From Gammaproteobacteria bacterium (GTDB taxonomy: Bacteria; Pseudomonadota; Gammaproteobacteria; Steroidobacterales; Steroidobacteraceae), in contig VBNH01000072.1 in the NCBI GenBank assembly GCA_005878095.1, positions 20,553-84,552 of the forward strand: DNA of 64,000 bases. Direction: 5' to 3'. How positions within the stretch are numbered: the stretch's first letter is position 1; each line of letters opens with the position of its first letter. The notes under the pieces were generated by a model. The model saw nothing but the letters and a program-made list of their open reading frames with translations. It made no database searches and was not told the origin of the DNA. The position numbers were made by a program, and so were the translations under genes. This document shows, one piece after another, positions 10,856 through 63,547 of this stretch.

Positions 10856-10894
10856 TGGAGTGCCGGTACGCTGCTCGCCGATCCGCACGTCTGG

Positions 10895-43648: not shown

Positions 43649-43663
43649 GGCTTGCGGCGTCCT

Positions 43664-45337
<1,674 letters not shown>

Positions 45338-45456
45338 GCGATTGATTATGGTCGAGCCTGGCGTCGCTGGCGATGCCTTGCACGCCGCACGATGCCTTGC
45401 AGGCCGCGGCAAGCGGCGCTGTGTTAGGCTTGCGGACACACCTTTCAGGGAGCCTC

Positions 45457-46401: not shown

Positions 46402-46421
46402 ACAGGGCCTGTAGACAGGGC
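46396..46421. repeat. perfect 13-bp tandem duplication (CTGTAGACAGGGC x2) spanning the stop codon of the deacetylase gene
   Basis: Units at 46396-46408 and 46409-46421. The TAG stop at 46399-46401 lies in unit 1. Confidence 0.95.
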
Positions 46422-46428
46422 GCCGCGC

Positions 46429-47685: not shown

Positions 47686-47708
47686 CGAGCGCGCGGAAAC
47701 CAAGCCGC

Positions 47709-48299: not shown

Positions 48300-48311
48300 G
48301 CGCTCGCGAGC

Positions 48312-49442: not shown

Positions 49443-49466
49443 CTTGAAGGCTGCGGGCGCACTGCA

Positions 49467-50063
49467 GTGTTTACCGGAATCGTCCAGGACATCGGCACGG
49501 TGCAGGCGCTCGAGGCGCGCGGCGGCGATGTGCGCCTCGTGATCGCCGCCCCCCACCTCGATCTGGCGCGCGTTCGCGTCGGCGACAGCCTGTGCGTGAG
49601 CGGCTGCTGCCTCACCGCGACCGAGGTGCAACCGCCCACCTTTGCGGCCGACCTCTCGCGCGAGACGCTCGCGCTCACGACGCTCGGAGAGCTCGTGCCT
49701 GGCGCGGCGGTGAATCTCGAGCCGGCGCTGCGCGCCGGGGAGCCGCTCGGCGGGCACCTGCTGTCGGGTCACGTGGACGGCGTCGGCGAGATCCTCAGCC
49801 GGGACGCCGATGCGCGCTCCCTGCGCCTCACCCTCGGCGCGCCCGCACCGCTCGAGCGTTTCCTGGCGGCGAAGGGCTCGGTAGCCGTCGATGGGGTGAG
49901 CCTCACCATCAACGCCGTGCAGCCGGGGAGCTTCGCGGTCAACATCATTCCCCACACTCAGGCGGTTACCACGCTCGGCAGCCTCGCGGTCGGGGCGCGC
50001 GTGAATCTCGAGGTCGACCAGGTGGCGCGCTACCTGGCACGGCTGCTCGAGAGGCCGCAGTGA
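49467..50063 (+). CDS. ribE: riboflavin synthase (alpha chain)
   Basis: MFTGIVQDIGTV, GDSLCVSGCCLT, and the duplicated barrel (VAVDGVSLTI). Confidence 0.95.
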   Translation: MFTGIVQDIGTVQALEARGGDVRLVIAAPHLDLARVRVGDSLCVSGCCLTATEVQPPTFAADLSRETLALTTLGELVPGAAVNLEPALRAGEPLGGHLLSGHVDGVGEILSRDADARSLRLTLGAPAPLERFLAAKGSVAVDGVSLTINAVQPGSFAVNIIPHTQAVTTLGSLAVGARVNLEVDQVARYLARLLERPQ

Positions 50064-50172
50064 GGGCGCAAGCTCGCGGCGGGGCGCAGCCGCCGCCCAG
50101 GGCTTGCCCGGTCGCCGCTAACCCCAGCGGGGTTGCACTTGAACAGTCTGTGATCCCGACAGCGCCATCGGG

Positions 50173-50805
50173 CTAGAGCTGGAGCAGGCCGCGCCTGATG
50201 GCGTAGCGCACCAGCCCGGCGATGTCGTGGATGTCGAGCTTCTTCATGATCCGGTTGCGGTGCGACTCTGCGGTCTTGAAGCTGATGCTGAGAAGACCCG
50301 CGATCGCTTTGGTGGTCTTGCCTTCGGCGATCAGCTGCAGGATCTGGCGTTCGCGCGCCGTAAGCGGGTCCTCGGGCTCATTGCTCTGATGCAGGTACGC
50401 GTCGACCAGCGACGTGGCCACGCCGGGGCTGATATAGATCGCGCCGCCCCTGACCTCCTGGATCGCACGGATCAGGTCGTCGGCCGCCTGCGTCTTCAGC
50501 ACGTAGCCCTTGGCGCCTGCCTGCAGCGCCTGCAGGACGTAGGGCCGATCGGTGTACATCGTCAGGAGAATGGCCCTGGTGTCGGGCGACACGCGATGGA
50601 TCTCGTGTATCGCATCCAGGCCGTTCAACAAAGGCATCGCCAGGTCGAGCACCGCGATGCCGGGCTGGAGACTCTTGGCGAGCTTGCAGGCCTCGTGTCC
50701 GTCGGAGGCCTCGCCGACCACCTCGTGTCCGGACTTCTCCAGCAGCGCGCGCACGCCCTGGCGCATGATCTGGTGGTCTTCGGCAAGCAATACCCGGGAG
50801 CCCAT
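50173..50805 (-). CDS. NarL/FixJ (LuxR-type HTH) response regulator
   Basis: Receiver VLLAEDHQIMRQG...AVLDLAMPLLNG, and HTH LTARERQILQLIAEGKTTKAIAGLLSISFKTAESHRNRIMKKL. ATG 50805 lies 1 nt after the kinase stop (TGAAATG), with a GGAGG ribosome-binding site. Confidence 0.9.
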   Translation of the reverse strand: MGSRVLLAEDHQIMRQGVRALLEKSGHEVVGEASDGHEACKLAKSLQPGIAVLDLAMPLLNGLDAIHEIHRVSPDTRAILLTMYTDRPYVLQALQAGAKGYVLKTQAADDLIRAIQEVRGGAIYISPGVATSLVDAYLHQSNEPEDPLTARERQILQLIAEGKTTKAIAGLLSISFKTAESHRNRIMKKLDIHDIAGLVRYAIRRGLLQL

Positions 50806-50806
50806 T

Positions 50807-51940
50807 TCACCTCCGCAGAGGAATTTCGGCCCGCAGGGTCGTGCCGCCGCCGGGCTGCGAGGCGATGTGCACTGAACCGCCGAGCGCGCCGAGGCGCTCG
50901 CGAATGCCGACCAATCCGAGCCCTGTGCCGCCCTCGAGCCTGTCCGCGGCGAAACCGACGCCGTCATCGCGCACGGTACACGATACGCGCTCGGTGGTCT
51001 GGCGAAGCTCGACGTTCGCCGTGCTCGCGCGGGCGTGCTTGATCACGTTGTTGAGCGCTTCCTGCGCGATCCGATAGAGCGTGATCTCCACGGCGGGCGC
51101 CAGGCGAGCGGCGAGCTTGCCGCTCACCGCGATGGCCACCCCGGCACGCCGGCCGACGTTCTCGGCAAGAAACTGCAGCGCAGGCACGAGCCCGAGCCGA
51201 TCGAGCACCATCGGCCGCAGCTCGTGGGAGAGGTTGCGCAGCTCCGTTTCGATCTTGCCCAGGAGCCACTTCACCTCGTTGAGACGCTCGCGATGACGCG
51301 GCGGCAGTTCGTCCGCGATGTCGGCGATCGCCATGTGCACCGAGGCGAGCAGTTGTCCGGCCTCGTCGTGCAGCGCGTGGGCGATCTTCTTTACCTCGTT
51401 TTCCAGCGTCTCGTTCAGCTCCCGCCACACGCGCGCGTCGCGGATCGCCTTCTGCTGCTCGCGGATGATGCGCTCTCGCTCCTGCACGAAACCGACGGCT
51501 ACGGTGTTGGCGATCCGGTTTGCCGCCGGCTCGTAAGCGTCCAGGATCCGGTTGAGCAGCTTGAAGTCCGATCGATACCTGGCGAAGAACGAGCGCGCGA
51601 GCACGTCGCGCAACAGCAGCACGACGCCCACGACCTCGTCGGTCTGGACCCCGCGCGGGACGATGCGCTCGGAGAGGTTGCGCGCATAGGCTTGCAATGC
51701 CTCGAACGTTCCCGTCTCCAGCGCATCCACGTAGTTGTCGTACACCGAGGTCACCTCGGCGAAGATCTCCTCGTCGGTCATCGTGTTCAGCAGCCTCGCC
51801 ATGATGATCCGGCGGGCCCACTCCTTGCGCAGCTCGGTGCGCTGCTGGCGCAGGTGGGCGACCAGCCCGCGCAGCAGCACAGCGCTCGAGTCGGCGCCCG
51901 TCTCGAGCGAACGCGGCGCTTTTGCCTGAACGTCTGTCAT
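50807..51940 (-). CDS. cytoplasmic sensor histidine kinase (HisKA_3/NarX-DegS type) with a helical N-terminal sensor domain resembling RsbR/RsbU N-terminal modules
   Basis: H-box IAHALHDEAGQLL, N-box AQEALNNVIKHA, G-boxes DDGVGF and GLGLVGIRERL. No hydrophobic TM span. Strong SD (GAGGAGG) before ATG 51940. The N-terminal domain assignment is tentative. Confidence 0.85.
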   Translation of the reverse strand: MTDVQAKAPRSLETGADSSAVLLRGLVAHLRQQRTELRKEWARRIIMARLLNTMTDEEIFAEVTSVYDNYVDALETGTFEALQAYARNLSERIVPRGVQTDEVVGVVLLLRDVLARSFFARYRSDFKLLNRILDAYEPAANRIANTVAVGFVQERERIIREQQKAIRDARVWRELNETLENEVKKIAHALHDEAGQLLASVHMAIADIADELPPRHRERLNEVKWLLGKIETELRNLSHELRPMVLDRLGLVPALQFLAENVGRRAGVAIAVSGKLAARLAPAVEITLYRIAQEALNNVIKHARASTANVELRQTTERVSCTVRDDGVGFAADRLEGGTGLGLVGIRERLGALGGSVHIASQPGGGTTLRAEIPLRR

Positions 51941-52015
51941 GGCTGCCTCCTCGGGGAAAAGCGGGGACGGAACATTTTAAATCCGGGCTTCGGCAGATGC
52001 AGGTTCAGATCCGGT

Positions 52016-53254
52016 TCAGATTCTGCGGAACACCAAACCGCCGTTGGTGCCGCCGAAACCGAATGAATTCGACAACGCGACGTCGATCTTCATCCGGCGC
52101 GCGGTGTGGGGCACGTAGTCCAGGTCGCACTGTGGATCCTGGCGAAAAACATTGATGGTCGGCGGTGCCACCTGGTCGCGCAGCGCCAGCGCGGAAAAAG
52201 CGGCCTCCAAGCCACCCGCGGCGCCGACCAGGTGTCCCGTCATCGATTTCGTCGAGCTCACCGCAATTCTTGCCGCGTGATCGCCGAAGCAGCGCTTGAT
52301 CGCGACCGTTTCGGCGATGTCGCCCAAGGGTGTCGAAGTACCGTGGGCGTTGATGTAGTCGACTTCGTCGCGGTTGACGCCGGCGTTCCTGAGCGCGTTT
52401 GCCATGCAGCGCATCGCTCCATCCCCGTCGTCGCAGGGCGCGGTGACATGGTGAGCATCGGAGCTCATGCCATAGCCCGCGAGCTCGCAGTAGATCTTGG
52501 CGCCGCGCGCCTTGGCGTGCGCGCATTCCTCGAGCACCACCACGCCCGCGCCCTCGCCCAATACGAAACCGTCGCGATCCTTGTCCCAGGGCCGGCTTGC
52601 GGTCTGAGGGTCGTCGTTGCGGCTGGACAATGCCCGCAGCGCGCATAAACCGGCCACGCCCAGCGGCGACAGCGTGCCCTCCGCGCCGCCGCAGATCATC
52701 ACGTCGGCATCACCATACTCGATCAGCCGGCCCGATTCGCCGATGCAGTGGGTGGCGGCGGCGCACGCGGTCGCGCTCGCGAGATTCGGACCCTTGAAAC
52801 CGTACAGGATCGAGAGATTACCCGCGACCATATTGATGATGGTGCCGGGCACGAAATACGGGGAAACCTTGCGCGCGCCGCCGTTATGCAGGCCGTCGTG
52901 GGCATCTTCGATCATGGGCAGGCCGCCGATGCCCGAGCCGATGTTGACTCCGATGCGGTGGGCGTTGTGCGGGCCGACCTGAATGCCGGCGTCCTTGATC
53001 GCTTCGATCGCCGCCGCCAGGCCGTAATGGACGAAGGTATCCATGCGGCGCGCTTCCTTGGGCGGCAAATAGCGGGTGACATCGAAACCCTTCACCTCGC
53101 CCGCGATCTGCGAGCCCAAGCCGGAGGGATCGAAGCGGGTAATGCGGGTGATTCCGGACTTGCCGGCAACGATATTGGACCACGCCTCGGTGACGCCGAT
53201 TCCGACTGGAGCAACGATGCCGAGACCGGTAACGACTACTCTGCGCTTTTCCAT
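52016..53254 (-). CDS. fabF: beta-ketoacyl-ACP synthase II (FabF-type)
   Basis: RVVVTGLGIVAPVG, active-site ATACAAATHCIG, HVTAP, HGTSTPLGD, SFGFGGTNG. It is a full-length canonical FabF but located inside the accessory cluster. Confidence 0.9.
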   Translation of the reverse strand: MEKRRVVVTGLGIVAPVGIGVTEAWSNIVAGKSGITRITRFDPSGLGSQIAGEVKGFDVTRYLPPKEARRMDTFVHYGLAAAIEAIKDAGIQVGPHNAHRIGVNIGSGIGGLPMIEDAHDGLHNGGARKVSPYFVPGTIINMVAGNLSILYGFKGPNLASATACAAATHCIGESGRLIEYGDADVMICGGAEGTLSPLGVAGLCALRALSSRNDDPQTASRPWDKDRDGFVLGEGAGVVVLEECAHAKARGAKIYCELAGYGMSSDAHHVTAPCDDGDGAMRCMANALRNAGVNRDEVDYINAHGTSTPLGDIAETVAIKRCFGDHAARIAVSSTKSMTGHLVGAAGGLEAAFSALALRDQVAPPTINVFRQDPQCDLDYVPHTARRMKIDVALSNSFGFGGTNGGLVFRRI

Positions 53255-53266
53255 AGGGCTTCACTG

Positions 53267-54343
53267 TTATGCCGTGAAATCTCCGCTTCGGTTTTGATCC
53301 GTGAGGCTGATCACGATTTTTCCCAATTGCTGCGCGCGCTCCAGGCGCTCGAAGCCAGAGCGCGCCTGCGCCAGCGGGTAGACCCGGTCGACCACGGGCC
53401 GCAGGGCGCCCGCGGCGAGGGCGCTGACCGCCGCCGCGTATTCCGCCGCATTGCCGAGCGTGGATCCCAGGAGAGCGTACTGATTCCAGAACAGCCGCCG
53501 GAGGTCGGTGACGACGCGGGGGCCAGTCGTGGCGCCGCAGGTCACCAGGCGGCCGCCCTTGGCGAGGACGCTCAACGAGCGTTCCCAGGTGGTCTCGCCG
53601 ACGTTTTCGATCACCACGTCCACGCCGCGGCGACCGGTCAAGGCGAGCACCTCCCTCACCACGTTTTGTTTCGCATGGTCGAGGGTGATATCGGCGCCGA
53701 GCTTGGTCGCCTGGGCGAGCTTCGCCTCGCTCGAGGACGTCGCGATCGTCCGAGCACCGCACAGCTTGGCGACCCGCATCGCGGCCAGGGACACCCCGCC
53801 CCCGATCCCCCAGACGAGGACTGTCTCGCCCGGCCGCACGCCGGCCCGCGTCACCACCATGCGCCATGCGGTGAGGGAGACGAGCGAGAATGCGGCCGCC
53901 TCGTCCCAGTCCAGAGGCGGGTCCAGGGTCGGGAGCCTGGCCAGGTTCTGCTCGGGAATGACCACGTACTCGGCGATCGTGCCCGGTAGGTGTTCCCCGA
54001 GTACCCGGAAATTCACGCACAGCGATTGATCGCCGGCGCGGCAGTACTCGCAGCTCCCATCCCATACGCCCGGATTGATCATCACCGGATCGCCCGGCCG
54101 CACGGCGGTCACCGCTTCCCCCACTTCCTGCACCACCCCCGACCCGTCCGAGCCCAGGATGTGGGGGAACCGGTACTTGACCGCCAGACCGCGGATCACG
54201 AAGACATCCAGACGATTCAGCGCGGCTGCCCGCACCGCCACCCGGACCTGGTGTGGACCCAAGCCCTGGGCCGAAGGGTCGGGAACGTCCGCGATCTCGA
54301 TCCGATCGAGGTCCCCCGTCGCGCTGATGACGCAGGCGCGCAT
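53267..54343 (-). CDS. MDR-superfamily zinc-type dehydrogenase/reductase (quinone oxidoreductase / enoyl reductase-like)
   Basis: MRACVIS..., GSDGSGVV in place of GHE, structural-Zn-like CEYCRAGDQSLC, and Rossmann VWGIGGGVSLAAM. Start at ATG 54343, not the track's 55576. Confidence 0.85.
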   Translation of the reverse strand: MRACVISATGDLDRIEIADVPDPSAQGLGPHQVRVAVRAAALNRLDVFVIRGLAVKYRFPHILGSDGSGVVQEVGEAVTAVRPGDPVMINPGVWDGSCEYCRAGDQSLCVNFRVLGEHLPGTIAEYVVIPEQNLARLPTLDPPLDWDEAAAFSLVSLTAWRMVVTRAGVRPGETVLVWGIGGGVSLAAMRVAKLCGARTIATSSSEAKLAQATKLGADITLDHAKQNVVREVLALTGRRGVDVVIENVGETTWERSLSVLAKGGRLVTCGATTGPRVVTDLRRLFWNQYALLGSTLGNAAEYAAAVSALAAGALRPVVDRVYPLAQARSGFERLERAQQLGKIVISLTDQNRSGDFTA

Positions 54344-54360
54344 GGTTTTTCCTTTCGTCC

Positions 54361-55491
54361 TCAATGGCCTCCTAATCCCCTCGGGCTGAGCACAACCCGA
54401 TTCATGCCGCACTGTCGGTCGTGCACCTCCTCGAAGGTCTCCCGGATCCGGTCCATGGGTCGGGTGGTGACGAGCGGCCGGATGCGGATCCTTTCCCGCA
54501 GCACCTGGTCCAGAACGTACGGGTAATGCTCGGGCGGGCAGCCCCAGGTGCCGCGGACCTCGGCGTCGTAGGCCATCAGTCGCGAGAGGTGGTAGGACAC
54601 CGGCTCCGGGCTGAAACCGACGACCACCACCATGCCGGCATAAGCCAGAAGTTCCAAAGCGGTCTCCTGCCCGGCCTGGGTCCCGCTCATCTCGAAGATC
54701 TTCCAGCCGGATCGGGCGTCGAGGCGGTTCTTCCGGCACAGAGACCGGAATTCCTTGCGGACCTCCCAAGGGCTGCGGCCGGCCGCAGGAAGAGGCAGGT
54801 CGACCCCGAAGGCCTGGCTCTGCGCCAACTTGTCCGGGCTGCGGCCGATGCCGATCACGACCTCGGCGCCCAGAAGCTTGGCCCACTGGGCCATGTAGAT
54901 CCCCAGGCCGCCGGTGACGCCGACGATGATGACCCGGTCGCCCTGCTCGAGACCGCCCCGCAGCGCCGCCTGATACGGTGTAGCCACCGCATCTGCCACC
55001 ACCGCCAGCAGCTCCAGGGGAATTCCGGCTTGCTCCGGGACCTCGCACAGCTCCCGGGTCGGCACCGGGATGTGGCTGGCGAAGCCCCCGTAGGGACCGT
55101 AGCTGTTCCCCGGCATCTTCTGCGACAGGCACCGGTTGGCCCGGCCGGCCCCACACAGCCCGCAACTCCGGCAGGGAAGAATGGTGGGAACAATGACTCT
55201 TTTCCCGACCCAGGAGGCGTCCCCGGCCACCACGGTTCCGCTGATCTCGTGCCCCAGGGTCAGAGGCGGCCTGGACACCGTGGGAATGCCGCCGAAGAAA
55301 TACCCGAGATCGGTCCCGCAGATGCCGCACCCGGCGATCTGGACCAGCGCCTCTCCCGGGGCAAGCGCCGGGAGAGGCAGGAGGCGCTGTTCGAGGTGGA
55401 AAGGCGGAGAGCCCCGCGCGTCTTCCCGCTCCCCGGCAGAAGCCACCATCTGCCAAGCCTGGATGGCCGAAGGCAGCGTCGATGCGGCCAC
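54361..55491 (-). CDS. zinc-dependent alcohol dehydrogenase family oxidoreductase
   Basis: CGICGTD, GHEISGTV, CRSCGLCGAGRANRC, and VGVTGGLGIYMAQ. Start uncertain: GTG 55491, 8 nt after the upstream stop, or ATG 55449. Confidence 0.8.
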   Translation of the reverse strand: MAASTLPSAIQAWQMVASAGEREDARGSPPFHLEQRLLPLPALAPGEALVQIAGCGICGTDLGYFFGGIPTVSRPPLTLGHEISGTVVAGDASWVGKRVIVPTILPCRSCGLCGAGRANRCLSQKMPGNSYGPYGGFASHIPVPTRELCEVPEQAGIPLELLAVVADAVATPYQAALRGGLEQGDRVIIVGVTGGLGIYMAQWAKLLGAEVVIGIGRSPDKLAQSQAFGVDLPLPAAGRSPWEVRKEFRSLCRKNRLDARSGWKIFEMSGTQAGQETALELLAYAGMVVVVGFSPEPVSYHLSRLMAYDAEVRGTWGCPPEHYPYVLDQVLRERIRIRPLVTTRPMDRIRETFEEVHDRQCGMNRVVLSPRGLGGH

Positions 55492-55499
55492 GAGTCCGG

Positions 55500-56273
55500 C
55501 TACCGGGCTTCGGTCCGCCGCAGCCACAGCGCCTCCAGGGCCGCCGCTTCCGCCGTGTGCCACGGCGTCCAGGCATCTGCAGATTCCCGCGGGCCGGCTT
55601 TGAGCGCCCGCAGGTCTGTCGCGTCCCGGGCCCGGAATGTTTCGATTGCCGTGCTCACCTGCCCCGCGAAATCCCGCCCTTCGAAAATCCGACCAACCAG
55701 GCCAACTCTGTAGGCGGCGCGGACGCCGAGGGAGTCCCCGCTGGTGACCAGCGCGAGGGCCTGCTCGGAGGCGAAGTGCCGGTGGAGGAACCGGATTCCC
55801 CCCCAGGCCGGAATCAGTCCCCGCTTGCATTCGGGAAAGCCGAAGACGGCGCGGGCGTGGGCCCACCGCAGATCACAGGCCAGGGCCAGCTCGAACCCGC
55901 CACCCAGGGCGAGGCCATTGATCGCAGCCACGGTCAGCGCATTCAGCCCTTCGAGGCGGCGGATGAGGGTCTGCCCTCGCCTGAAGAAATCCAAGGCTTC
56001 CCGGGGCGGGAGCGCTTCGATGGCCGCCAGATCGACTCCCACGGAGAAGACCTTTCCCTCCCCCCGCAGGACCAGCAGCTTGACGTGCTGCGCCTCGGCC
56101 ACGGCGGCGAGCGCGCCTTCGAGCTCGTCGAGCAACGCGGGCGAGATGGCGTTGCGGCCGTCCTCCCGGCGCAGGACCAGATGCGCGACACCGTGCGCAA
56201 TCGAGAGCCCGATCGACCCGCCGCCGCTCGCAGCGGGTTCAGGCCCGGGCGACACCGAGCAGCGAGACTCCAT
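55500..56273 (-). CDS. enoyl-CoA hydratase/isomerase (crotonase) family protein
   Basis: GVAHLVLRREDGRNAISPALLDEL, LRGEGKVFSVGVDL, and AAINGLALGGGFELALACDLR (oxyanion-hole region). Start uncertain: ATG 56273 overlaps the upstream gene by 35 nt; GTG 56255 is an alternative. Confidence 0.8.
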   Translation of the reverse strand: MESRCSVSPGPEPAASGGGSIGLSIAHGVAHLVLRREDGRNAISPALLDELEGALAAVAEAQHVKLLVLRGEGKVFSVGVDLAAIEALPPREALDFFRRGQTLIRRLEGLNALTVAAINGLALGGGFELALACDLRWAHARAVFGFPECKRGLIPAWGGIRFLHRHFASEQALALVTSGDSLGVRAAYRVGLVGRIFEGRDFAGQVSTAIETFRARDATDLRALKAGPRESADAWTPWHTAEAAALEALWLRRTEAR

Positions 56274-57198
56274 GACGGCTGGAAACGGGTAAGGCGATAT
56301 AGCCGGTTTTCTCCACCCGGAGGCGTTCAGTGGCCTTGATCCTGCCCGCCTGCAGCAGCGGCAGATATTCGGGGCCGATGCCCAACGGGTCGCCGAGATC
56401 GAGGTCAAGGGTTTCGGCCTCCGCCAGCGCCGCCACGGGCAGGGGCTGCGGGATCGCACGCGGCAGCCGGAAAGCCGGCGCGCAAGGGCGCGGCTGCGCA
56501 AGCCCCGGGCTCTCGAGCTCGATCTCGGTCAACACCACGCCTGCGCGCGCCCCCCGCTGCCGCGCCCGCTCGGTCCGTTCCAGGCAGAAAATACAGGACC
56601 ACTCTGAAACAGGCCGCGCCGCTTGCCCGTTCACCAGGCTCTCCGAAAAGCCGGTGAAGACCGTGTGGCAGCGTCCGGTTGCAAGCAGCTGCCGAGCCCG
56701 GCGCAGAAGAAGGAGCGAGAGGTTGGATCGGCCGGCCACGGTGAGATTCGGCCCCTTGATACCGTGGGCCAGGGCTGCCGTCGCCGCGGCGATGTTGTAG
56801 CCGAAGTTGGAGAACAGCGTGCTCGACAGGAGCTTTCCCTGCCGGGCGCGGAGCTGCTCGTAGGCCTTGTTCCGGGTCGCGCCGGGCCCCCGCGTAGCCG
56901 CCAGCAGGATGCCGAAGCCGTAGGGATCCTGCGCCACCGCGTCGGGCGCGATGCCCGCATCCCCCATCGCTTCCTCGAGGGCGACGATGGCGTTCTTCGC
57001 GAGCGGGTCCAGGTAACGGGCGATCTGCAGTTTGGGGCTTTTGATGCCGAGCAGCTCGGTGAGTCCCCCGGGGGGCAGCGAGCCATTCCCGGCGGTCCGG
57101 CACGGCGCCTCGGCTTCGCCCAGCGCGCGGAAAAAGCTCTCCTTGCCGCCCAGAGGGGAGAGGAGACCGATCCCCGTCAGCAGGATGTCGCCAGTCAT
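56239..57198 (-). CDS. beta-ketoacyl synthase-like protein lacking the active-site Cys (chain-length-factor / KS-beta-like partner)
   Basis: KS-like N-terminus ILLTGIGLLSPLGG. Where a KS has T-A-C-x-S/A-G, this protein reads KGPNLTVAGRSNLS, with no Cys. It is only ~320 aa, and I see no HGT or second-His motif. ATG 57198 overlaps the KS stop (ATGA). Confidence 0.75.
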   Translation of the reverse strand: MTGDILLTGIGLLSPLGGKESFFRALGEAEAPCRTAGNGSLPPGGLTELLGIKSPKLQIARYLDPLAKNAIVALEEAMGDAGIAPDAVAQDPYGFGILLAATRGPGATRNKAYEQLRARQGKLLSSTLFSNFGYNIAAATAALAHGIKGPNLTVAGRSNLSLLLLRRARQLLATGRCHTVFTGFSESLVNGQAARPVSEWSCIFCLERTERARQRGARAGVVLTEIELESPGLAQPRPCAPAFRLPRAIPQPLPVAALAEAETLDLDLGDPLGIGPEYLPLLQAGRIKATERLRVEKTGYIALPVSSRHGVSLLGVARA

Positions 57199-58436
57199 GG
57201 ATCGGTCCACTGGTCGGCGTTCACCCGGGAGAAGACGAGGGCGCCGTTGCAGCCGCCGAATCCAAAAGAGTTGCTGAGGGCGTGCTCGAGAGCGGCCACC
57301 CTGGCTTCGCCGCAGACCAGATTCAGGGGCAGTTCGGGGTCGGGCGCCGCCACGTTGAGGGTGGGCGGGATCTTCTGGTCCCGCAAGGAGAGCACCGTCG
57401 CGACCGCTTCGAGGGCGCCGGCGGCGCCCATGACATGGCCGATGGCCGGCTTGATCGAGGTGACCGGGATCCGCGCTGCGGCGGGCCCGAAGAGCTCTCG
57501 GATCGCCGCGTACTCCATGCCGTCATTCAAGGGGGTTCCGGATCCATGCAGGTTGATGTGGTCCACATCCTCCGCCTGGATGCCGGCATCCTCCAGGGCC
57601 TGCCCCATGACCTTGACCGCGCCCGCACCGCTCGGGTCGGGCCCGGTGATGTGATGTGCATCGCAGCTGTAACCGGTGCCGGCGCACGCGGCATAGGTGG
57701 GGAGTTCCTGCGCCAAGCTCTCGCGTTCCAGCACCAGGATCCCAGCCCCTTCGCCGAACAGGGTCCCGTCCCGCTCCGGGGTGAAGGGGCGGATGAGGGT
57801 CGGGGTCAGGGTATTGAGGGCCGAGTGTCCGAGGTATTTCATGCGGTCCAGCGTGTCCACCCCGCCGCACAGCACGACCTCGTAGCCCTCGTGCCGGATC
57901 ATGTCCTTCGCGATGCCGATGGCATTGGTGCCGGCGGCGCAGGCGGTGGTGACGATGAGTGCCTCGCTGCTCACGCGGTAAGCGTCCGCAAGCTCCTCGA
58001 CCAGGCCAGCAAAGTCGTCGTAGGTGTCGACCTGCTCCCCGCCGCACTCATCCAGCTGGTCGATCGACTTCTCCACCAGGGACATGCCCAGCGAGGTGCC
58101 GAGCACCAGCCCGACCTTTTTCTTCTGCAGGTAAGCCCGGGTCCAGCCGGCATCCTTCAGCGCCTCGTCCATCGCCAAGCGGGCAAAGAGAGCGATGCGA
58201 GAGTCCAGCCGGTAGCGCTCCGCGTATTCCCGTTGGGCCGCAGAGAGCCGGATCTCCCCGGCGAGCACATTGCGCAGGTGTTCCTGGCGGAAGTTGGCGA
58301 CCGGCTTGATGCCGGTCCTACCGGCCAGAAGCCCGTCCCACAACTGGGCGGTGTCCTCGCCGAGCGCGCTCACGCTGCCCAGTCCGGCGACCAGGACCCT
58401 GGGCAGGGAGAGGCCTCTTCCAGAAGCGTCAGCCAC
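57195..58436 (-). CDS. beta-ketoacyl-ACP synthase (KS-alpha, FabB/F-like)
   Basis: VLVAGLGSVSALG, active-site VTTACAAGTNAIG, DAHHITGP, LHGSGTPLND, SFGFGGCNG. The GTG start overlaps the ACP stop. Confidence 0.9.
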   Translation of the reverse strand: MADASGRGLSLPRVLVAGLGSVSALGEDTAQLWDGLLAGRTGIKPVANFRQEHLRNVLAGEIRLSAAQREYAERYRLDSRIALFARLAMDEALKDAGWTRAYLQKKKVGLVLGTSLGMSLVEKSIDQLDECGGEQVDTYDDFAGLVEELADAYRVSSEALIVTTACAAGTNAIGIAKDMIRHEGYEVVLCGGVDTLDRMKYLGHSALNTLTPTLIRPFTPERDGTLFGEGAGILVLERESLAQELPTYAACAGTGYSCDAHHITGPDPSGAGAVKVMGQALEDAGIQAEDVDHINLHGSGTPLNDGMEYAAIRELFGPAAARIPVTSIKPAIGHVMGAAGALEAVATVLSLRDQKIPPTLNVAAPDPELPLNLVCGEARVAALEHALSNSFGFGGCNGALVFSRVNADQWTDP

Positions 58437-58758
58437 GGCTTTCCGAGACCACGGGCTCGTCCCCCCGGGCGGCGATCTTGGCGAGGACGAGGCTGCTCAG
58501 CCGGTCCAGGGTCCGCAGATTCTCGCTCGCGGCCTCGTCGCTGCTGATCTCGATCCCGTATTTCTCCTCGAGGATCGTGACGAGCTCGATCAAGCCCACC
58601 GAGTCGACGCCGAGATCGCTGGCTATGGAATCCTCCAGCTTGATCTCGCCCTCGGGGATGGACACAAAAAGATCCTCGACGAGGACCTTCTTCAACTCCT
58701 TTACGATCGTTTCCTTGTCGGTCAAGGCGTGTTCCTCACTCTCGGATTGATGACTCAT
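58429..58758 (-). CDS. acyl carrier protein (dedicated)
   Basis: 109 aa. The phosphopantetheine site is DLGVDSVGLIEL. Its ATG overlaps the ligase stop (ATGA). Confidence 0.9.
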   Translation of the reverse strand: MSHQSESEEHALTDKETIVKELKKVLVEDLFVSIPEGEIKLEDSIASDLGVDSVGLIELVTILEEKYGIEISSDEAASENLRTLDRLSSLVLAKIAARGDEPVVSESRG

Positions 58759-60299
58759 AGGGGTTCAGGCTGCTTCAGGCGGGCGCCGATCTGTTTCGCC
58801 GGCCTCCCCTTGAAGTGGTAGAGCTGCGGGTCATAGAACCGGAACTCGGAGGGAATCAGAAAGGCGGGCAGATGCCTGCGGCACAAGCTCTTCAGTTCCT
58901 GCACCAGGGACTCCTCCGAAGACACCCGGGCCTTGAGGGTGGCGAGAAGGTGTTCCCCTTGGGCGCTTTCCACCCGGGTGACGTGCACTTCCTGCACGTC
59001 GGGATGGGTGAAGATGATCTGTTCGATGTAGCCGGGGTGCACCTTGCGGCCCCGGAACTTGAATTCCCCGTCCCGGCGCCCGAGCAGGTAGAGAAAACCA
59101 TCGGCGTCCAGCCGGCCGAAGTCCCCGGTGAAAAGCCAGCCGTCGCGGACTCTCGCGGCAGTCTGGACTTCATCCCGGAAATATCCGTTCATCAGGGAAG
59201 GGGTCTGCAGCACCACTTCCCCGAGTTCTCCCGGCGGGCAGGGGTGCCCCGCCGGGTCCAGGATGGCGATCTCCACCCCCCGCAAGGCGCGACCCACCGA
59301 CTGGGGCAGCGAGGCGAAGAACTGCGGCGCCAGCGTGGACACCCGGGGGCCGGCTTCACTCAAGCCATAGGTAATGTAGCAACGGGTCCAGGGCAGGCAG
59401 CCCTGTATCAAATTGGCCACGTTCGGCCGGCAGCGGTCGCCACCCACGGTGAGATAGCGCAGCGAGCGCAGGGCCCGGAAGTCGCCGCCACGGTTCTGCA
59501 GCAGGTATTGGAAGATGACCGGGCTTCCCATCAAGAGGTTGGCGCCGTAGCGCTCCACCAGGGTGTGGACGAGTTTCAGCTCGATGACATGGGGTGTCAG
59601 GACGGTCGTGCCATGCAGGCGCAGGGTACTGAGCAGGCAGGCGTTCAGCCCGTAGCTGTAATTCACCGGCAAGACCTGGAGGGAAATGATCTCCCCCTGG
59701 AGGGCCAGGCTTTCCAGGTGCATGTCGATGTTGCGGCGGATCGCCCGGTGGCTGAGCCGGACCGCCTTTGGATGCCCGGTGGTACCCGAGGTCAGTATGA
59801 ACAGCGCATCCTCCTCAGGATCGGCGACCGGGCGAGCATCGGGGACTGACTCGGCGCGGGGCACGTCCCCGCAGAAGGCGACCTGCAGGCCGGTCCCGTC
59901 CACCTCCACGAGGCAGCACGCCGTGCCGCTCAACGCTGCCTTGATCCTGCGCTGCAGGCTCGTGTTGGTAATGATGAGCGCGGGCTTGAGGAAGCCGAGG
60001 ATGACCCGCAGCTCCCTGGGCTTGGTGTAGATGTCAAGGGGAATAGCCACCCCGCCGACCTCGGAGACGGCGAAGAGCGCAACCACGAACTCCGGAGAGC
60101 CCGGCAGGAGGAGGACGATCCGCTGCCGGCGCACGGCGGTCCGTTCCCTGAGGCGAGCCGCCAGAGCCCGGCTGTGCCGGCAGAGCTCGGCGTAGCTCAG
60201 CTCGAGGCCGTCCTCCGGTGATACCAGGGCGACTCTGCTCGAGCCCCGGTGCTGGTATAGCAGCTCGTGGAGGAACCCGGAGTTGTCCGGTGCCGACAT
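58755..60299 (-). CDS. ANL-superfamily acyl-AMP/acyl-ACP(CoA) ligase
   Basis: LTSGTTGHPKAV, ITYGLSEAG, and GDFGRLDADGFLYLLGRRDGEFKFRGRKV. ATG 60299 is preceded by an AGGAGG ribosome-binding site; the track start at 60656 is an artefact. Confidence 0.85.
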   Translation of the reverse strand: MSAPDNSGFLHELLYQHRGSSRVALVSPEDGLELSYAELCRHSRALAARLRERTAVRRQRIVLLLPGSPEFVVALFAVSEVGGVAIPLDIYTKPRELRVILGFLKPALIITNTSLQRRIKAALSGTACCLVEVDGTGLQVAFCGDVPRAESVPDARPVADPEEDALFILTSGTTGHPKAVRLSHRAIRRNIDMHLESLALQGEIISLQVLPVNYSYGLNACLLSTLRLHGTTVLTPHVIELKLVHTLVERYGANLLMGSPVIFQYLLQNRGGDFRALRSLRYLTVGGDRCRPNVANLIQGCLPWTRCYITYGLSEAGPRVSTLAPQFFASLPQSVGRALRGVEIAILDPAGHPCPPGELGEVVLQTPSLMNGYFRDEVQTAARVRDGWLFTGDFGRLDADGFLYLLGRRDGEFKFRGRKVHPGYIEQIIFTHPDVQEVHVTRVESAQGEHLLATLKARVSSEESLVQELKSLCRRHLPAFLIPSEFRFYDPQLYHFKGRPAKQIGARLKQPEPL

Positions 60300-60307
60300 C
60301 GCGCCTC

Positions 60308-60865
60308 CTACCACGGGGCGTCCGCGAAGCGAGCGACGCGGGTCTTGGCCAAGGTCAGCCCGCCCTTGACGACGCTGCGATCGCCGACGGCGGCATCTCC
60401 GACGAAGATACCGATCGCTTCCTCGAGCTTCTTCGGCCTCATCGCCATCTCCAGGGTATCGCCGGGATAGATCGGCGCCAGAAACCGGAATTTCACCGAC
60501 GTGATCAGCGTCATCTCGTCGTCCGTGATCTGGCCCATGGACAGCTTGAAGAAAATGATCGCCAATTGAGCGAAGCCCTGGACGACTTGGGTGGCGGGCA
60601 TGATGGCCCGCTTGGGGAAGTGACCGACCAACTCGGGGGAATTGCCGGTCACGCACTTGATGGCCTCGATGTATTCCCCCTCACGGTAGTCGGTGATCCG
60701 ATCGAGCATGATGAGCGGATATCGGTGCTCCAAGTACTTTTCCTTCATCTCGGAGAAGCCGATGACCCTCTTGCCGTTCTTTTCCACCCTGGGAGCAGGC
60801 TCTCGCAACGCGGCCTCCCGGAAAGATTGAGTCGGGGACGAAACGTATCCTGGCTTTGCAGGCAT
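60308..60865 (-). CDS. FabZ/FabA-like 3-hydroxyacyl-ACP dehydratase (hotdog fold)
   Basis: LEHRYPLIMLDRI (compare LPHRYPFLLVDRV) and GHFPKRAIMPATQ with the catalytic His. Start uncertain: TTG 60919, ATG 60865 or ATG 60751. Confidence 0.8.
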   Translation of the reverse strand: MPAKPGYVSSPTQSFREAALREPAPRVEKNGKRVIGFSEMKEKYLEHRYPLIMLDRITDYREGEYIEAIKCVTGNSPELVGHFPKRAIMPATQVVQGFAQLAIIFFKLSMGQITDDEMTLITSVKFRFLAPIYPGDTLEMAMRPKKLEEAIGIFVGDAAVGDRSVVKGGLTLAKTRVARFADAPW

Positions 60866-60956
60866 CAGAAAAATTCCGAGCTCGTCTACGCGCTCAATTA
60901 GAGACGAGATGGCGATCAAGAAAAATCGGGCAAATGCTGCAAAATATGAGGGGCAA

Positions 60957-61892
60957 CTACCCGATCGAGCCGGTCACCCGATCCCGACGCCTAGTACTCT
61001 CTGCGTCGCCGTACTCTCTGCGTCGCCGCAGGAAGCCCAGCAAGAGCTCGTTGAACACCCGAGGGCGCTCGAGCATCGGCGAGTGTCCGCACTGCGGGAT
61101 CGTCTGGAGGTGGAGGGTGTCGAGCGCGCGCGCCCACAGCTTCCAATATTCGACCGGCGTCACCCGGTCGTTCTCGCCCCAGGCCAAAAGGACCGGACAC
61201 CGTATCTCCGGGAGAATGTCCTCGAGCGGGTACTCGCGGCTTGCTTTGAGGGCGCGCACGGCGTTGGCGAAGTGGTGCCGCTCCGAGAGCACGTCGGCGG
61301 TCCGCCGGATCATGTCCTCGGTCGCGCGGCTGGGATCGTGAAACAGGTTCTCCACGAGCCGCAAGACAAACTCCCGCGATATTTGGCGCGGGGTCCCGAT
61401 CGCCAGGTTGATCTCCGGTTCGAGCCCCGGTGCGCCGCTCACCACCAGCGAGTCCACCCGCTGCGGGTAATGACGGGCAAAATCCAGCGCCACGAGCCCA
61501 CCCAGGGAGTTGCCGCACAGCGTGCAGCGCTCCACCGCGTGTTCGTCCAGCACGGCGCACAGGGCGGGGCGCAGATCTTCGATTCCGCCTGAACGCCAGT
61601 CGAGGACCGCGAGCGGATCGAGCAACCGGATGACGCCGAACCCCTCCGCGCGGAGGCGAGCGCTCGTAGACTCCCAGAGCCACTCGCCGGCGAAGAGCCC
61701 GGGCAACAGCGCGACCGAGGCTTTCGTCCGGGAGGAGGGAGCGTAGTCGTATCGGAACCCCGCAGGCTCGATCCCTGCTGCGGGTAACAAGTCAGGCACG
61801 GTAGATGTGACGTCCGGCTCAAGGTTTGAGTCGGCGCAGGTGTTGTTGGTCACGGAAAAGGCCGCGGTGACCGTGTTGCCAACAGTGGCCAC
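60957..61892 (-). CDS. alpha/beta hydrolase (MhpC/BioH-like fold); C-terminus altered by a 17-bp duplication
   Basis: Nucleophile elbow GNSLGG, VSGAPG, GENDRVTP, and the catalytic His in QCGHSPMLE. The GTG start at 61892 is uncertain. Confidence 0.75.
   Translation of the reverse strand: MATVGNTVTAAFSVTNNTCADSNLEPDVTSTVPDLLPAAGIEPAGFRYDYAPSSRTKASVALLPGLFAGEWLWESTSARLRAEGFGVIRLLDPLAVLDWRSGGIEDLRPALCAVLDEHAVERCTLCGNSLGGLVALDFARHYPQRVDSLVVSGAPGLEPEINLAIGTPRQISREFVLRLVENLFHDPSRATEDMIRRTADVLSERHHFANAVRALKASREYPLEDILPEIRCPVLLAWGENDRVTPVEYWKLWARALDTLHLQTIPQCGHSPMLERPRVFNELLLGFLRRRREYGDAESTRRRDRVTGSIG
60994..61027. repeat. perfect 17-bp tandem duplication (GTACTCTCTGCGTCGCC x2) inside the 3' end of the hydrolase gene
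   Basis: Units at 60994-61010 and 61011-61027. An out-of-frame TAG (60993..60991 on the minus strand) directly follows. Confidence 0.95.
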
Positions 61893-61927
61893 ATCGGGTT
61901 CGGTCGGTTGGAGGTGGAATCAATCTA

Positions 61928-62007
61928 ACGGTTGCGGCACGAGGAGAACATCGGGTGAAAACAGGAACGCACGATCGTCAAATCCCGTAGCGGGCCAGCG
62001 TCAAATG
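61928..62007 (-). promoter_or_regulatory. conserved ~80-nt upstream module, copy 1 (two ATTTGACG direct repeats 23 nt apart)
   Basis: Minus-strand reading: CATTTGACGCTGGCCCGCTACGGGATTTGACGATCGTGCGTTCCTGTTTTCACCCGATGTTCTCCTCGTGCCGCAACCGT. It lies directly upstream of hydrolase gene 60957..61892 and is about three-quarters identical by eye to 63221-63301. Confidence 0.6.
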
Positions 62008-62056
62008 CCTGCCGATATCATCGCAAAGCGATGACACTCGTCCCTACGATGAGATC

Positions 62057-63115
62057 TCATTGGAGTGCGTGTGCGCCTCGTCGCGGGCTCGCACCGCCGG
62101 CGACCGAAGGGCCGATCATGGCGAGGATCTCCTCTACCAGCGTCCTCCCAAAGAGAAATGCCGTTCTGTGTCCCGCCGGGAGCCACCGGATCGGCGGCTG
62201 GCCGTGCGTCTGCCAGAGCTCCTCCGTAAATTTGCGCGGCAGGAGGAGGTCGTACCGGGCATTGAGCATCAGCAGGCGGCGCGCCTGGCTCCGTCCGGCG
62301 TAGGAGGTGGGATTTCCCGCGGCCCACAGGGCGGCGAGCCTGGAGCGCGTCATCCCCCGCGCCTCCATGGCCCGACGGTACGCCTGGGTGAGCGGGCTTT
62401 CCCACACGATCCCCGCGACGTCTCCCCCCGCGATCACGGAAACTCCCAAGTCCAGAGGCTCGAGGGCCATGAGGACGTGGGCGAGAACCCCGCCGAGGCT
62501 GAACCCCACCACACCCACCGGCGCGCCGCGCCCGCGCAGCAAGCTCAGAGCGGCGCGGCTATCGACGACGGCCTGTCGGAAGGCGGCCGCGGTCCAGAGA
62601 GGGTCGCCTGAAAGGAAGCAGCCCCCGCTCGGCGTCCCCCGCAGCGCTCGCTCCCAGTGAAACGGTAGGGACATGAGCGCGGCGCTCACGCCCTGGCCCG
62701 CCAGACCCCGGCAGAACCGGTCTTCGAACCATCGGTCCTGGCGCCAGATTCCGGGCAGGACGAGGAGAGCAAAGCGGGAGCGATGATGATGGGCGGGACG
62801 GTAAAAGCGAACCGCGACCCGGTCATTCGCAGCGATCCCCAAGGGGACCGTGCTCGAGAATGCCAGCTGCTCGATCGCGAGCCCGTCGGCTTCATCGAGT
62901 TTCTCCCGGACTTCGGGACGGACGGGCGGCGGGGGCGGGTAAAAGCGGCTCGGCTCCCTGAGCGCCAGGGGATCCAGGCAGGCCGTCTCGGAGAGAGGGC
63001 TGGCGCCCGGTGCCGCCAGCGCCGGCGAGGGGATCCGGCGAGCCCCGACGCGGTCGCACCACTCGCAGAGCCTGCGCCAAAGCCCGCCGTCCAGCCTGGC
63101 TGCGTTGGGGCACAT
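62057..63115 (-). CDS. alpha/beta hydrolase family protein
   Basis: Nucleophile elbow GFSLGG, a Pro-rich N-terminal segment, and HRTAF near the C-terminus. Start uncertain: ATG 63115, or TTG 63133 as in the track. Confidence 0.7.
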   Translation of the reverse strand: MCPNAARLDGGLWRRLCEWCDRVGARRIPSPALAAPGASPLSETACLDPLALREPSRFYPPPPPVRPEVREKLDEADGLAIEQLAFSSTVPLGIAANDRVAVRFYRPAHHHRSRFALLVLPGIWRQDRWFEDRFCRGLAGQGVSAALMSLPFHWERALRGTPSGGCFLSGDPLWTAAAFRQAVVDSRAALSLLRGRGAPVGVVGFSLGGVLAHVLMALEPLDLGVSVIAGGDVAGIVWESPLTQAYRRAMEARGMTRSRLAALWAAGNPTSYAGRSQARRLLMLNARYDLLLPRKFTEELWQTHGQPPIRWLPAGHRTAFLFGRTLVEEILAMIGPSVAGGASPRRGAHALQ

Positions 63116-63220
63116 CGAATCAATCCGCAGCAAGGCAGATCGTCACTCAACCTGAACGGCGTATCCCGGGGTCGCGATCATCGTCTGCTTTCTTCCGCCA
63201 GTTGCGATTGCGGTGAGCCT

Positions 63221-63301
63221 ACGGTTGCGGCGAGAGGAGAACAATCCGGTAAAAACGCCAAAGCGCGAGCGTCAAATCCCGTAAGTGGCCCACGTCAAAT
63301 T
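63221..63301 (-). promoter_or_regulatory. conserved ~80-nt upstream module, copy 2
   Basis: Minus-strand reading: AATTTGACGTGGGCCACTTACGGGATTTGACGCTCGCGCTTTGGCGTTTTTACCGGATTGTTCTCCTCTCGCCGCAACCGT. It lies about 90-105 nt upstream of hydrolase gene 62057..63115/63133. Confidence 0.6.
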
Positions 63302-63429
63302 CCACAGTTGCGATGAAGAACCTGCGCTCCATCGAAGGTGCACGCGAAGTTGGCTCGAGGACGGTGGCTGCGAGAGCGGCCGGAAATGTTATGTTGCCGT
63401 TTGTTGCCGCGGCAGGCGGCGCCTTGGCG

Positions 63430-63474
63430 CCATATCAGCGGGGCCGCCATATCAGCGGGGCCATATCAGCGGGG
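63430..63474. repeat. three copies of CCATATCAGCGGGG (63430-43, 63447-60, 63461-74)
   Basis: Read directly. Spacing is 17 then 14 nt, ending 73 nt upstream of the ribB start. Confidence 0.9.
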
Positions 63475-63547
63475 AGGGAGTTGGTACGCGCCGTGCGCCG
63501 GCGAGTGCTCGGGTATACTGACGGGCCGTATCACCCGGCCGCGCACC

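Follow-up and report, generated by a model that had tools for sequence, protein, structure and literature searches.

The 64,000-nt stretch analysed here (positions 20,553 to 84,552 of contig VBNH01000072.1, assembly GCA_005878095.1, from an uncultured soil gammaproteobacterium of the Steroidobacteraceae; hereafter the window) carries on its + strand a histone-deacetylase-family gene, glyA, nrdR, ribD and ribE, the last of which stops at 50063. The next + strand gene is ribBA, starting at 63548. The two riboflavin genes are separated by 13,484 nt, and exactly 13 genes lie on the minus strand between them (50173-63133); the remaining order of the riboflavin operon is intact. Comparison with related genomes showed that this block is a derived insertion of ~13.3-13.4 kb into the ribE-ribBA spacer, which occurred in the lineage of the window after its split from the closest of the compared loci, L001. 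The cargo is predicted from its sequence to be a type II polyketide synthase (PKS)-like cassette related to those for cispentacin (Amc) and coronafacic acid (Cfa).

Gene content of the ribE-ribBA interval

The GC content of the window is ~68-70%, and open reading frames (ORFs) were therefore filtered by third-position GC (GC3) and then checked against Pfam. The same 13 genes appeared in independent gene calls on near-identical metagenome contigs. A preliminary description of the locus had reported 13 co-directional genes opposite to the riboflavin genes, and the ORF calls and Pfam matches agree with it in both description and count. The features are as follows.

46429-47685, + strand: glyA (GC3-guided ORFs, Pfam)
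47709-48299, + strand: nrdR (GC3-guided ORFs, Pfam)
48312-49442, + strand: ribD (GC3-guided ORFs, Pfam)
49467-50063, + strand: ribE, riboflavin synthase, the last gene ahead of the insert (Pfam Lum_binding twice, E 2e-48; homology to L001 up to 50047)
50064-50172, no strand: left junction spacer between the convergent ribE and response regulator genes (50064-50139 in neither L001 nor L115)
50173-50805, minus strand: NarL/LuxR-type response regulator, 210 aa (Pfam Response_reg, GerE; codon usage near-native)
50807-51940, minus strand: HisKA_3 sensor histidine kinase, 377 aa, with a weak RsbRD_N-like N-terminus (Pfam HATPase_c, HisKA_3)
52016-53254, minus strand: FabF, beta-ketoacyl-acyl carrier protein synthase II (TIGR03150, 643 bits, cutoff 493.75; Cys-His-His present)
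53267-54343, minus strand: ADH1, oxidoreductase of the medium-chain dehydrogenase/reductase (MDR) type, enoyl-thioester-reductase-like (Pfam ADH_N, ADH_zinc_N, ADH_zinc_N_2)
54361-55449, minus strand: ADH2, Zn-dependent dehydrogenase (MDR), Had-like (TIGR03201, 393.8 bits, cutoff 338.65)
55500-56273, minus strand: crotonase / enoyl-CoA hydratase family protein (Pfam ECH_1, E 9e-35; in NCBIfam, generic matches below cutoff only)
56239-57210, minus strand: predicted non-catalytic ketosynthase (KS) partner (KS-beta), ~320 aa (partial Pfam ketoacyl-synt N-terminal domain, E 3e-13)
57195-58436, minus strand, start at 58436 or 58373: catalytic KS (KS-alpha) (Pfam ketoacyl-synt N and C domains; Cys-His-His present)
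58429-58758, minus strand: acyl carrier protein (ACP) (Pfam PP-binding; best NCBIfam model AmcB)
58755-60299, minus strand: adenylate-forming ligase (Pfam AMP-binding)
60308-60865, minus strand (in other assemblies 60308-60808, 166 aa): FabA/Z-like hot-dog protein of AmcE/Cfa2 type (NF058663 AmcE, 142.1 bits, cutoff 140)
60957-61892, minus strand: alpha/beta-hydrolase 1 (Pfam Abhydrolase_6, Hydrolase_4)
61928-62009, minus strand: conserved ~85-nt segment, copy 1, upstream of hydrolase 1, with two ATTTGACG boxes
62057-63133, minus strand: alpha/beta-hydrolase 2, 352-358 aa (GC3 frame support; no Pfam match; weak match to the NCBIfam RcgR-family lactone hydrolase, 62 bits against a cutoff of 182)
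63221-63303, minus strand: conserved ~85-nt segment, copy 2, upstream of hydrolase 2, with two ATTTGACG boxes
63393-63547, + strand: retained ancestral ribE-ribBA spacer, with a 3-copy CCATATCAGCGGGG tandem repeat (63428-63475) and the candidate GGTATACT -10-like element (63512-63519)
63548-64000, + strand: 5' part of ribBA, cut at the window end (Pfam DHBP_synthase, E 6e-55)

The continuation ribBA-ribH-nusB-thiL beyond the window was seen in contigs L103 and L104.

The block is a derived insertion into an old spacer

Related loci were collected by a RibE-anchored scan with one genome per species. As a result, 80 loci were obtained, 72 of which contain both ribE and ribBA, and the best matches were uncultured Steroidobacteraceae-like gammaproteobacterial metagenome-assembled genomes, which places the window in that lineage. 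When all window proteins were searched against these loci by tblastn, no block gene was found beside ribE in any of the 80. The two riboflavin genes were at most 200 nt apart in 61 of the 72 loci carrying both, namely 51 of the 53 more distant ones (Pseudomonas, Halieaceae and others) and 10 of the 19 from the close clade. The preliminary description had held that ribE and ribBA are neighbours in many proteobacteria such as pseudomonads, and had proposed the synteny comparison reported here. The distant loci bear this out for pseudomonads and most gammaproteobacteria, as does L001, and the block is missing at this site from all 80 loci.

Among the 80 loci, L001 is the closest (94% identity in GlyA, 93% in the RibBA N-terminus and 83% in RibE). 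It is collinear with the window at 91.9% (39611-46404), 86.2% (46416-50047) and 91.0% (63478-64000) nucleotide identity, and between the aligned flanks it has 59 nt versus 13,430 nt in the window. Its ribE-ribBA spacer of 118 nt is intact and colinear with the spacers of other relatives, and the whole of it matches window 63393-63547, as judged by eye and by alignment. The break therefore falls practically on the ribE stop codon, and ribBA kept the old spacer. Empty-site homology delimits the inserted DNA at ~50048/50064 to ~63392/63477. Of the block first described as 50064-63547, the inserted DNA stands, and the final ~155 nt (63393-63547) are to be taken out as the old spacer. The adjacency of ribE and ribBA in outgroups sets the polarity of the change, the adjacent state being ancestral. 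Furthermore, L115, with 97% identity in the RibBA N-terminus versus 93% for L001, is the nearer relative and also carries the block by ribBA, so the insertion is older than the window species and younger than the split from L001.

Copies of the block in other chromosomal contexts

Further copies were located by a metagenome scan with a profile of the KS partner, followed by blastn/tblastn and annotation of the flanks. Copies at 92-96% nucleotide identity were present in other chromosomal contexts of related lineages (L111, L112, L113, L110 and L115). In L115 the block sits against ribBA just as it does in the window; homology ends at window 50140, and the far side bears a cytochrome-c-peroxidase-like gene, an SCO4226-like gene and a TPR regulator in place of ribE. 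The copies in L111 and L112 lie between SixA/CHAD genes and tig-clpP-clpX-lon, with ADH1 deleted and the two-component module (window 50156-51986) inverted. In L113 homology ends at window 63392, the inferred right end of the insert, and an extra 1.2-kb gene for an 'NPELAQ'-repeat protein stands between both hydrolase genes. The cluster in L089, at 84-94% amino-acid identity, has a fatty-acid desaturase gene after FabF and likewise an inverted two-component module. The mobile unit thus spans about 50140-63392, and its different contexts indicate that the block has clearly moved, although no mobility genes were found. The block probably came from a related bacterium or from another locus, and its integration would have left no signature.

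A 110-aa ORF beside the L113 copy was considered as an IS91-type transposase fragment; Pfam gave nothing for it and the candidate was dropped. Mobile-DNA-type remnants were seen beside other cluster copies, comprising a nucleotidyltransferase-like small ORF (L110 154-495, by eye) and a TacA1 antitoxin and a DUF772 transposase fragment (precomputed Pfam; L088 1085-1420 and L087 1278-1523, respectively). None of these remnants is present in the window.

The ribE-ribBA junction is a recurrent cargo site

In the window, the sequence (C/G)TCGGGTATACTGA precedes the ribBA start codon by ~30 nt, and the same element was aligned in L001, L002, L003, L004, L007, L009 (with one mismatch), L011 and L016, with or without cargo. 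There is a single GGTATACT in the 64-kb window, and each of the listed 20-kb loci except L009 has one GGTATAMT. GGTATACT is therefore a candidate -10-like promoter element of ribBA, conserved in the clade and older than the insertion. It accords with the earlier suggestion that ribB probably has its own promoter, with the addition that the candidate element sits in the retained old spacer and predates the insertion. The insert landed upstream of this pre-existing element while the old spacer stayed on ribBA. If GGTATACT is a -10 element, ribBA-ribH-nusB was transcribed separately even before the insertion, and an insert at the junction can be tolerated; such independence beforehand, which is probable, would have made the junction a permissive landing site. 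GGTATACT was also observed upstream of the histidine-kinase gene in L089 (9561-9568), and -10-type elements of this sequence may be common in these organisms.

A ribE-ribBA distance above 200 nt was found in 9 of the 19 close-clade loci versus 2 of the 53 distant loci, and the frequency of such junctions together with their varied cargo fits a permissive site. The cargo of relatives was annotated by eye and not by domain search. It consists of an outer-membrane beta-barrel-like protein and TlpA-like thioredoxins in L002, L009, L011 and L016, a 200-aa CxxCH protein in L004 and L007, a small GNAT-like protein in L006, and cupredoxin, cytochrome and sensor-kinase genes in L018; across L002-L007, L009, L011, L016 and L018 it also includes an MFS transporter and a TonB-receptor-like gene. 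The ribE-ribBA junction is thus a recurrent cargo site in the Steroidobacteraceae-like clade.

Just upstream of the -10-like element, a tandem repeat of CGCCATATCAGCGGGG occupies 63428-63475. It is absent from L001, and its copy number is three in the window and most same-species contigs and four in L107, making it a small variable-number tandem repeat. With regard to RNA elements, Rfam at the gathering threshold gave only the tRNA at 32806, and no flavin mononucleotide riboswitch or other RNA upstream of ribBA. Hairpins and folds of the spacers at both junctions were no more stable than shuffled sequence. A literature search for insertions in riboflavin operons returned nothing relevant.

The cargo resembles the Amc/Cfa biosynthetic cassettes

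In cispentacin biosynthesis, AmcH loads 2-oxoglutarate onto the ACP, AmcF and the motif-less AmcG perform one C2 extension and cyclisation to a five-membered ring, and AmcE decarboxylates the cyclised product; clusters with homologues of B, E, F, G and H have been named 'CFA-type' (Hibi et al. 2023, PMC10698177). The tailoring set of the present block, with its regulators, does not belong to the published classes, and neither the names searched for its hydratase and dehydrogenase components nor those for its lineage appear in the supplementary lists of that study.

The window proteins were compared with the NCBIfam models and with the P. syringae cfa genes (L101, plasmid pB13-200A, NZ_CP019872). 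The hot-dog protein passes the model for AmcE, the cispentacin cyclizing decarboxylase (NF058663, 142.1 bits, cutoff 140), and passes none of the FabZ cutoffs of NCBIfam. It shares 37% full-length identity with Cfa2, and its nine best plasmid matches, all from Pseudomonas, are annotated as coronafacic acid dehydratase. The ACP scores 73 bits on AmcB (cutoff 80) against at most 45 bits on generic ACP models, with 30% identity to Cfa1 (E 3e-11). The KS, with its Cys-His-His triad present, reaches 300 bits on AmcF (NF058662, cutoff 325) and 318-323 bits on generic FabF models, and is 35% identical to Cfa3 (E 8e-54); against plasmid records it gave only non-specific Streptomyces KS matches. The ligase scores 155 bits on AmcH (NF058661, 2-oxoglutaryl-ACP ligase, cutoff 370) and is 31% identical to Cfa5 (E 2e-21). 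Among the tailoring enzymes, ADH2 passes the model for 6-hydroxycyclohex-1-ene-1-carbonyl-CoA dehydrogenase (TIGR03201, 393.8 bits versus 338.65), and the best NCBIfam models for ADH1 (crotonyl-CoA carboxylase/reductase, PIG3 quinone oxidoreductase and acryloyl-CoA reductase) all remain below cutoff.

The order hot-dog, ligase, ACP, KS, partner, crotonase, ADH2 is kept in copies down to 44-66% amino-acid identity, and in the clusters at that distance (GC 0.60-0.62) it is preceded by FabF, giving FabF, hot-dog, ligase, ACP, KS, partner, crotonase, ADH2. The retained order indicates that this core is a conserved unit. These comparisons refine the earlier view of the block, a lipid/polyketide cluster plus a two-component system unrelated to riboflavin, to a predicted CFA-type cassette, Amc/Cfa1-5-like and type II PKS-like, that would specify a rare coronafacic-acid/cispentacin-like small-molecule pathway.

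The KS partner, whose gene overlaps the KS gene, lacks the Cys-His-His triad; the Cys position is a Ser in the window protein and is variable across the family. This family is rare, with 22 homologues among 5.8e9 proteins, and with 23 clusters at E<=1e-30 and 80 at E<=1e-10 among 1.84e9 representatives; tblastn against plasmid records gave no match. The partner weakly matches the Iga12 chain-length factor (6kxd_B, E 1.9e-5). Alignment of the partner family with single sequences (Cfa4, KS) by hhalign was uninformative. By sequence criteria, the partner is a rare, distinct, longer and predicted non-catalytic KS-like family that is not a detectable AmcG/Cfa4 homologue.

The features of this partner also bear on a different reading of the chemistry, in which the product would be a linear acyl or polyene chain destined for a lipid or signal molecule. 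It would be made by a highly reducing type II PKS or by a specialised pathway of fatty-acid type, primed by the ligase and elongated by the KS with a chain-length-factor-like partner. The partner keeps a KS N-terminal domain (Pfam E 3e-13) and matches FabF and 6kxd_B better than AmcG, FabF models give the KS scores as high as AmcF does, the ligase is most like long-chain acyl-CoA ligases, a FabF and an enoyl-reductase-like MDR are in the cluster, and ApeI-like is among the precomputed Pfam annotations of the hot-dog protein in related contigs. Set against these are the hot-dog protein, which passes the AmcE equivalog and not the FabZ cutoffs and has Cfa2 as its best public matches, and the ACP, for which AmcB is the best model by a wide margin. 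Furthermore, no short-chain dehydrogenase/reductase (SDR) was found by Pfam among the 13 products, unlike in highly reducing type II PKS and aryl-polyene systems, and a dehydrogenase passing an alicyclic beta-hydroxyacyl-thioester dehydrogenase model is present instead. A linear pathway is accordingly judged a possible alternative, though a clearly less probable one than the CFA-type assignment.

A pathway can be proposed on the basis of the CFA-type assignment. The ligase would load a carboxylic acid starter, possibly 2-oxoglutarate as in the characterised systems, onto the ACP, and the Cys-His-His KS with its non-catalytic partner would extend it with malonyl-ACP and possibly cyclise it. The AmcE/Cfa2-like hot-dog protein would then decarboxylate or dehydrate the product. 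In the resulting cyclic beta-keto thioester, the Had-like dehydrogenase may reduce the keto group, the crotonase may dehydrate and the enoyl-reductase-like MDR may reduce. FabF could extend the alicyclic acyl-ACP, and the two hydrolases would release or transfer the product. Expression would be controlled by the HisKA_3 kinase and the LuxR-type regulator, and the paired ATTTGACG boxes that precede the two hydrolase genes may mediate this control. Each ~85-nt segment contains two such boxes 23 nt apart (61976-62006 and 63270-63300), and these four are the sole ATTTGACG sites in 64 kb, versus 0.87 expected; they may be operators for the LuxR-type regulator of the cluster.

A bolder and rather improbable version of this scheme takes the block as an undescribed branch of five-membered-ring type II PKS-like machinery. 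In such a branch, the longer KS partner would replace AmcG/Cfa4, and the Had-like dehydrogenase, crotonase, enoyl-reductase and FabF would make a cyclopentyl/cyclopentenyl-primed fatty acid or a jasmonate/prostaglandin-like signalling lipid from cyclopentenone-carboxyl-ACP under cognate two-component control, all within a 13-kb unit that moves between sites in the chromosomes of related soil bacteria with no recognisable mobility gene.

Composition of the block and alternative origins

The lower GC content of the block noticed in the preliminary description was confirmed, with 0.664 (50064-63390) versus 0.697 (1-50063) and 0.60 in the ACP and hot-dog genes. The comparison of GC, codon usage and k-mers that it proposed revealed a strong deviation at 52-63 kb. 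Mean GC3 was 0.838 in the block versus 0.893 in the flank (Mann-Whitney p=5e-6), and the synonymous-codon log-likelihood (LL) under the flank model was -1.02 versus -0.80 (p=1.5e-6). The tetranucleotide and dinucleotide deviation of 4-kb windows within 52-63 kb reached z=4.7-8.1, with a flank maximum of z=3.8; this deviation begins at ~51-52 kb. All 11 biosynthetic genes deviate in codon usage (z(LL)=-2.0 to -5.0). The two-component genes (50.2-51.9 kb) are near-native.

Taken together, the best overall explanation, which is considered likely, is an island inserted at ribE-ribBA that carries a regulated CFA-type biosynthetic cluster. Several observations count against it. As to mobility, Pfam and NCBIfam found no integrase or transposase domains among the 13 products, and the spacers are too short to encode any; no tRNA lies near the block, the sole one of the window being at 32806; and no direct or inverted repeat of at least 8 nt is common to both junctions, that is, no att-like repeat or target-site duplication. 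The preliminary description had likewise seen no integrase, transposase or flanking repeats, and with none of these and no tRNA found, no integration mechanism can be named. As to the promoter, GGTATACT is a consensus-like motif only, and a generic scan for sigma-70 promoters and terminators gave no promoter and no enrichment. As to the chemistry, the partner is about twice as long as AmcG/Cfa4 (~320 versus 157-177 aa), gave no blastp or hhalign match to Cfa4 and scored 14.3 bits on the AmcG model NF058659 (family members 11-21 bits, cutoff 80), and its AlphaFold2 model, built from a 16-sequence alignment, was unusable (mean predicted local distance difference test score, pLDDT, 38.6). The ligase scores higher on generic fatty-acyl-CoA ligase models than on AmcH, and the usual substrates of Had-type dehydrogenases and of crotonases are CoA thioesters rather than ACP thioesters. 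As to composition, atypical codon usage could in part reflect low expression, and the near-native GC3 and codon usage of the two-component genes (z=-0.5 to -1.3) mean that the island may not have come as one unit.

This last point is the starting place of a two-step origin, in which the two-component system was resident at, or separately arrived at, the ribE-ribBA junction and the 11-gene biosynthetic segment then landed beside it. The contrast between the two near-native genes and the eleven deviating ones, the onset of the k-mer deviation at ~51-52 kb, the fact that segment 50156-51986 behaves as a module of its own, with inverted orientation in L111, L112 and L089, and the small unrelated cargo at the same junction in relatives would all fit such a history. 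However, the same two-component system, at 84-97% amino-acid identity, is found in every close copy examined that reaches that cluster end. It also accompanies the copies away from the rib site (L089, L111, L112 and L115), and in none of the 80 related loci does it stand alone at the junction. Its constant association with the cluster argues for a functional unit travelling together, and the two-step origin is regarded as unlikely.

A further alternative is that the block is ancestral at ribE-ribBA and was precisely deleted in L001 and other relatives. Its presence beside ribBA in L115, nearer than L001, does make the arrangement older than the window species. Nevertheless, the 80 RibE-anchored loci free of the block, the adjacency of the two genes in gammaproteobacterial outgroups, the intact L001 spacer colinear with those of other relatives, the foreign composition of the block and its copies at unrelated loci make this alternative very improbable.

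Both junctions were found in independent assemblies. The response regulator lies 110 nt downstream of ribE in all 10 displayed contigs of the 14 that encode an identical RibE, their sources being different soil metagenomes plus two NCBI assemblies. The right junction was traced through contigs with an identical hydrolase 1, since the exact 352-aa hydrolase 2 sequence found no database record; 6 displayed contigs, of 15 with identical hydrolase 1, reach the ribBA side. In the longest, L103 and L104, hydrolase 2 is divergent from ribBA-ribH, and nusB-thiL follow in L104. The insertion thus appears fixed in this species. A chimera of assembly or binning, joining a biosynthetic-cluster contig to rib-operon contigs, could be entertained in that every sequence is metagenome-derived, and its probability is negligible with the left junction in at least 10 contigs and the right in at least 6 from different samples and assemblers (ENA, JGI, NCBI).

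Two side observations concern the flank. Moderate k-mer outliers were also present at 1-4000 and 9001-13000 (tetranucleotide z=3.8 and 2.7; GC 0.65-0.66). For nrdR, the longest ORF (from 47532) overlaps the end of glyA, and the start of the conserved NrdR (196 aa, zinc ribbon and ATP-cone) is at 47709, as in other assemblies.

Significance

Biosynthetic islands and operon-internal insertions are common, and the insertion itself is ordinary biology that does not overturn current understanding; the block is a real but fairly ordinary genomic island with an uncharacterised pathway. Its cargo and the recurrent use of the junction are of moderate interest. The locus offers a clean and datable case of a biosynthetic island inside a highly conserved vitamin operon that was not disrupted, at what would be a pre-existing internal promoter boundary if the candidate promoter holds. 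It may be useful for the study of permissive insertion sites and for spotting islands that lack the classic mobility signatures. The cargo would extend the Amc/Cfa (cispentacin/coronafacic acid) class of type II PKS-like systems to uncultured soil gammaproteobacteria, and the rare, distinct KS partner family and unusual tailoring set make it a concrete candidate for heterologous expression.

Comparison with known systems

Compared with the proteobacterial riboflavin operon nrdR-ribD-ribE-ribBA-ribH-nusB, only the ribE-ribBA spacer differs, being short there and 13,484 nt in the window. As with other genomic islands that carry biosynthetic clusters, the block is recognised by presence and absence against close relatives, by atypical composition and by the same DNA in several contexts. 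Unlike in typical islands, neither an integrase or transposase nor a tRNA target or direct repeats could be found, and the block lies inside a conserved biosynthetic operon, at an apparent internal transcription-unit boundary.

The cargo is predicted to share with cfa1-cfa5 of P. syringae the roles of ACP, hot-dog protein, Cys-His-His KS, adjacent non-catalytic partner and adenylate-forming ligase. The partner differs, having ~320 aa with a KS N-terminal domain here, whereas Cfa4 has 177 aa and no detectable similarity to it. The gene order is hot-dog, ligase, ACP, KS, partner here and ACP, hot-dog, KS, Cfa4, ligase in cfa. Neither a type I PKS (Cfa6/7) nor a coronafacate ligase is present; the block instead combines crotonase, Had-like dehydrogenase, MDR reductase and FabF genes with those for two hydrolases and a two-component system.

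A ligase-loaded ACP and C2 extension by a KS with a non-catalytic partner, both predicted here, are shared with amcB-amcH for cispentacin in Streptomyces (PMC10698177). AmcB and AmcE are the best NCBIfam models for the ACP and hot-dog protein, and for the KS the AmcF score (300 bits) comes close to those of the generic FabF models (318-323 bits). In contrast, homologues of the AmcC aminotransferase and the AmcD thioesterase are absent, and the AmcG and AmcH models are not reached (14 versus 80 and 155 versus 370 bits). The block also has its own reductase candidates, whereas cispentacin biosynthesis borrows FabI (PMC10698177).

The ishigamide Iga11/Iga12 pair (PDB 6KXD) and aryl-polyene systems combine a KS and a thiolase-fold non-catalytic partner with an ACP and a FabA/Z-like hot-dog protein, as is predicted for the block, and the KS and partner of the window match 6kxd_A and 6kxd_B. 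The partner is truncated in comparison with a chain-length factor. The SDR ketoreductase and second dehydratase of these systems have no counterpart in the block, nor do the membrane, export and glycosyl/acyl-transfer genes of aryl-polyene clusters. Finally, ADH2, which passes TIGR03201 and adjoins a crotonase, recalls Had with the Dch/Oah crotonases of anaerobic benzoyl-CoA degradation. Here, however, no benzoyl-CoA reductase genes are nearby, the crotonase matches generic models only, and the context of ACP, KS and ligase is biosynthetic.

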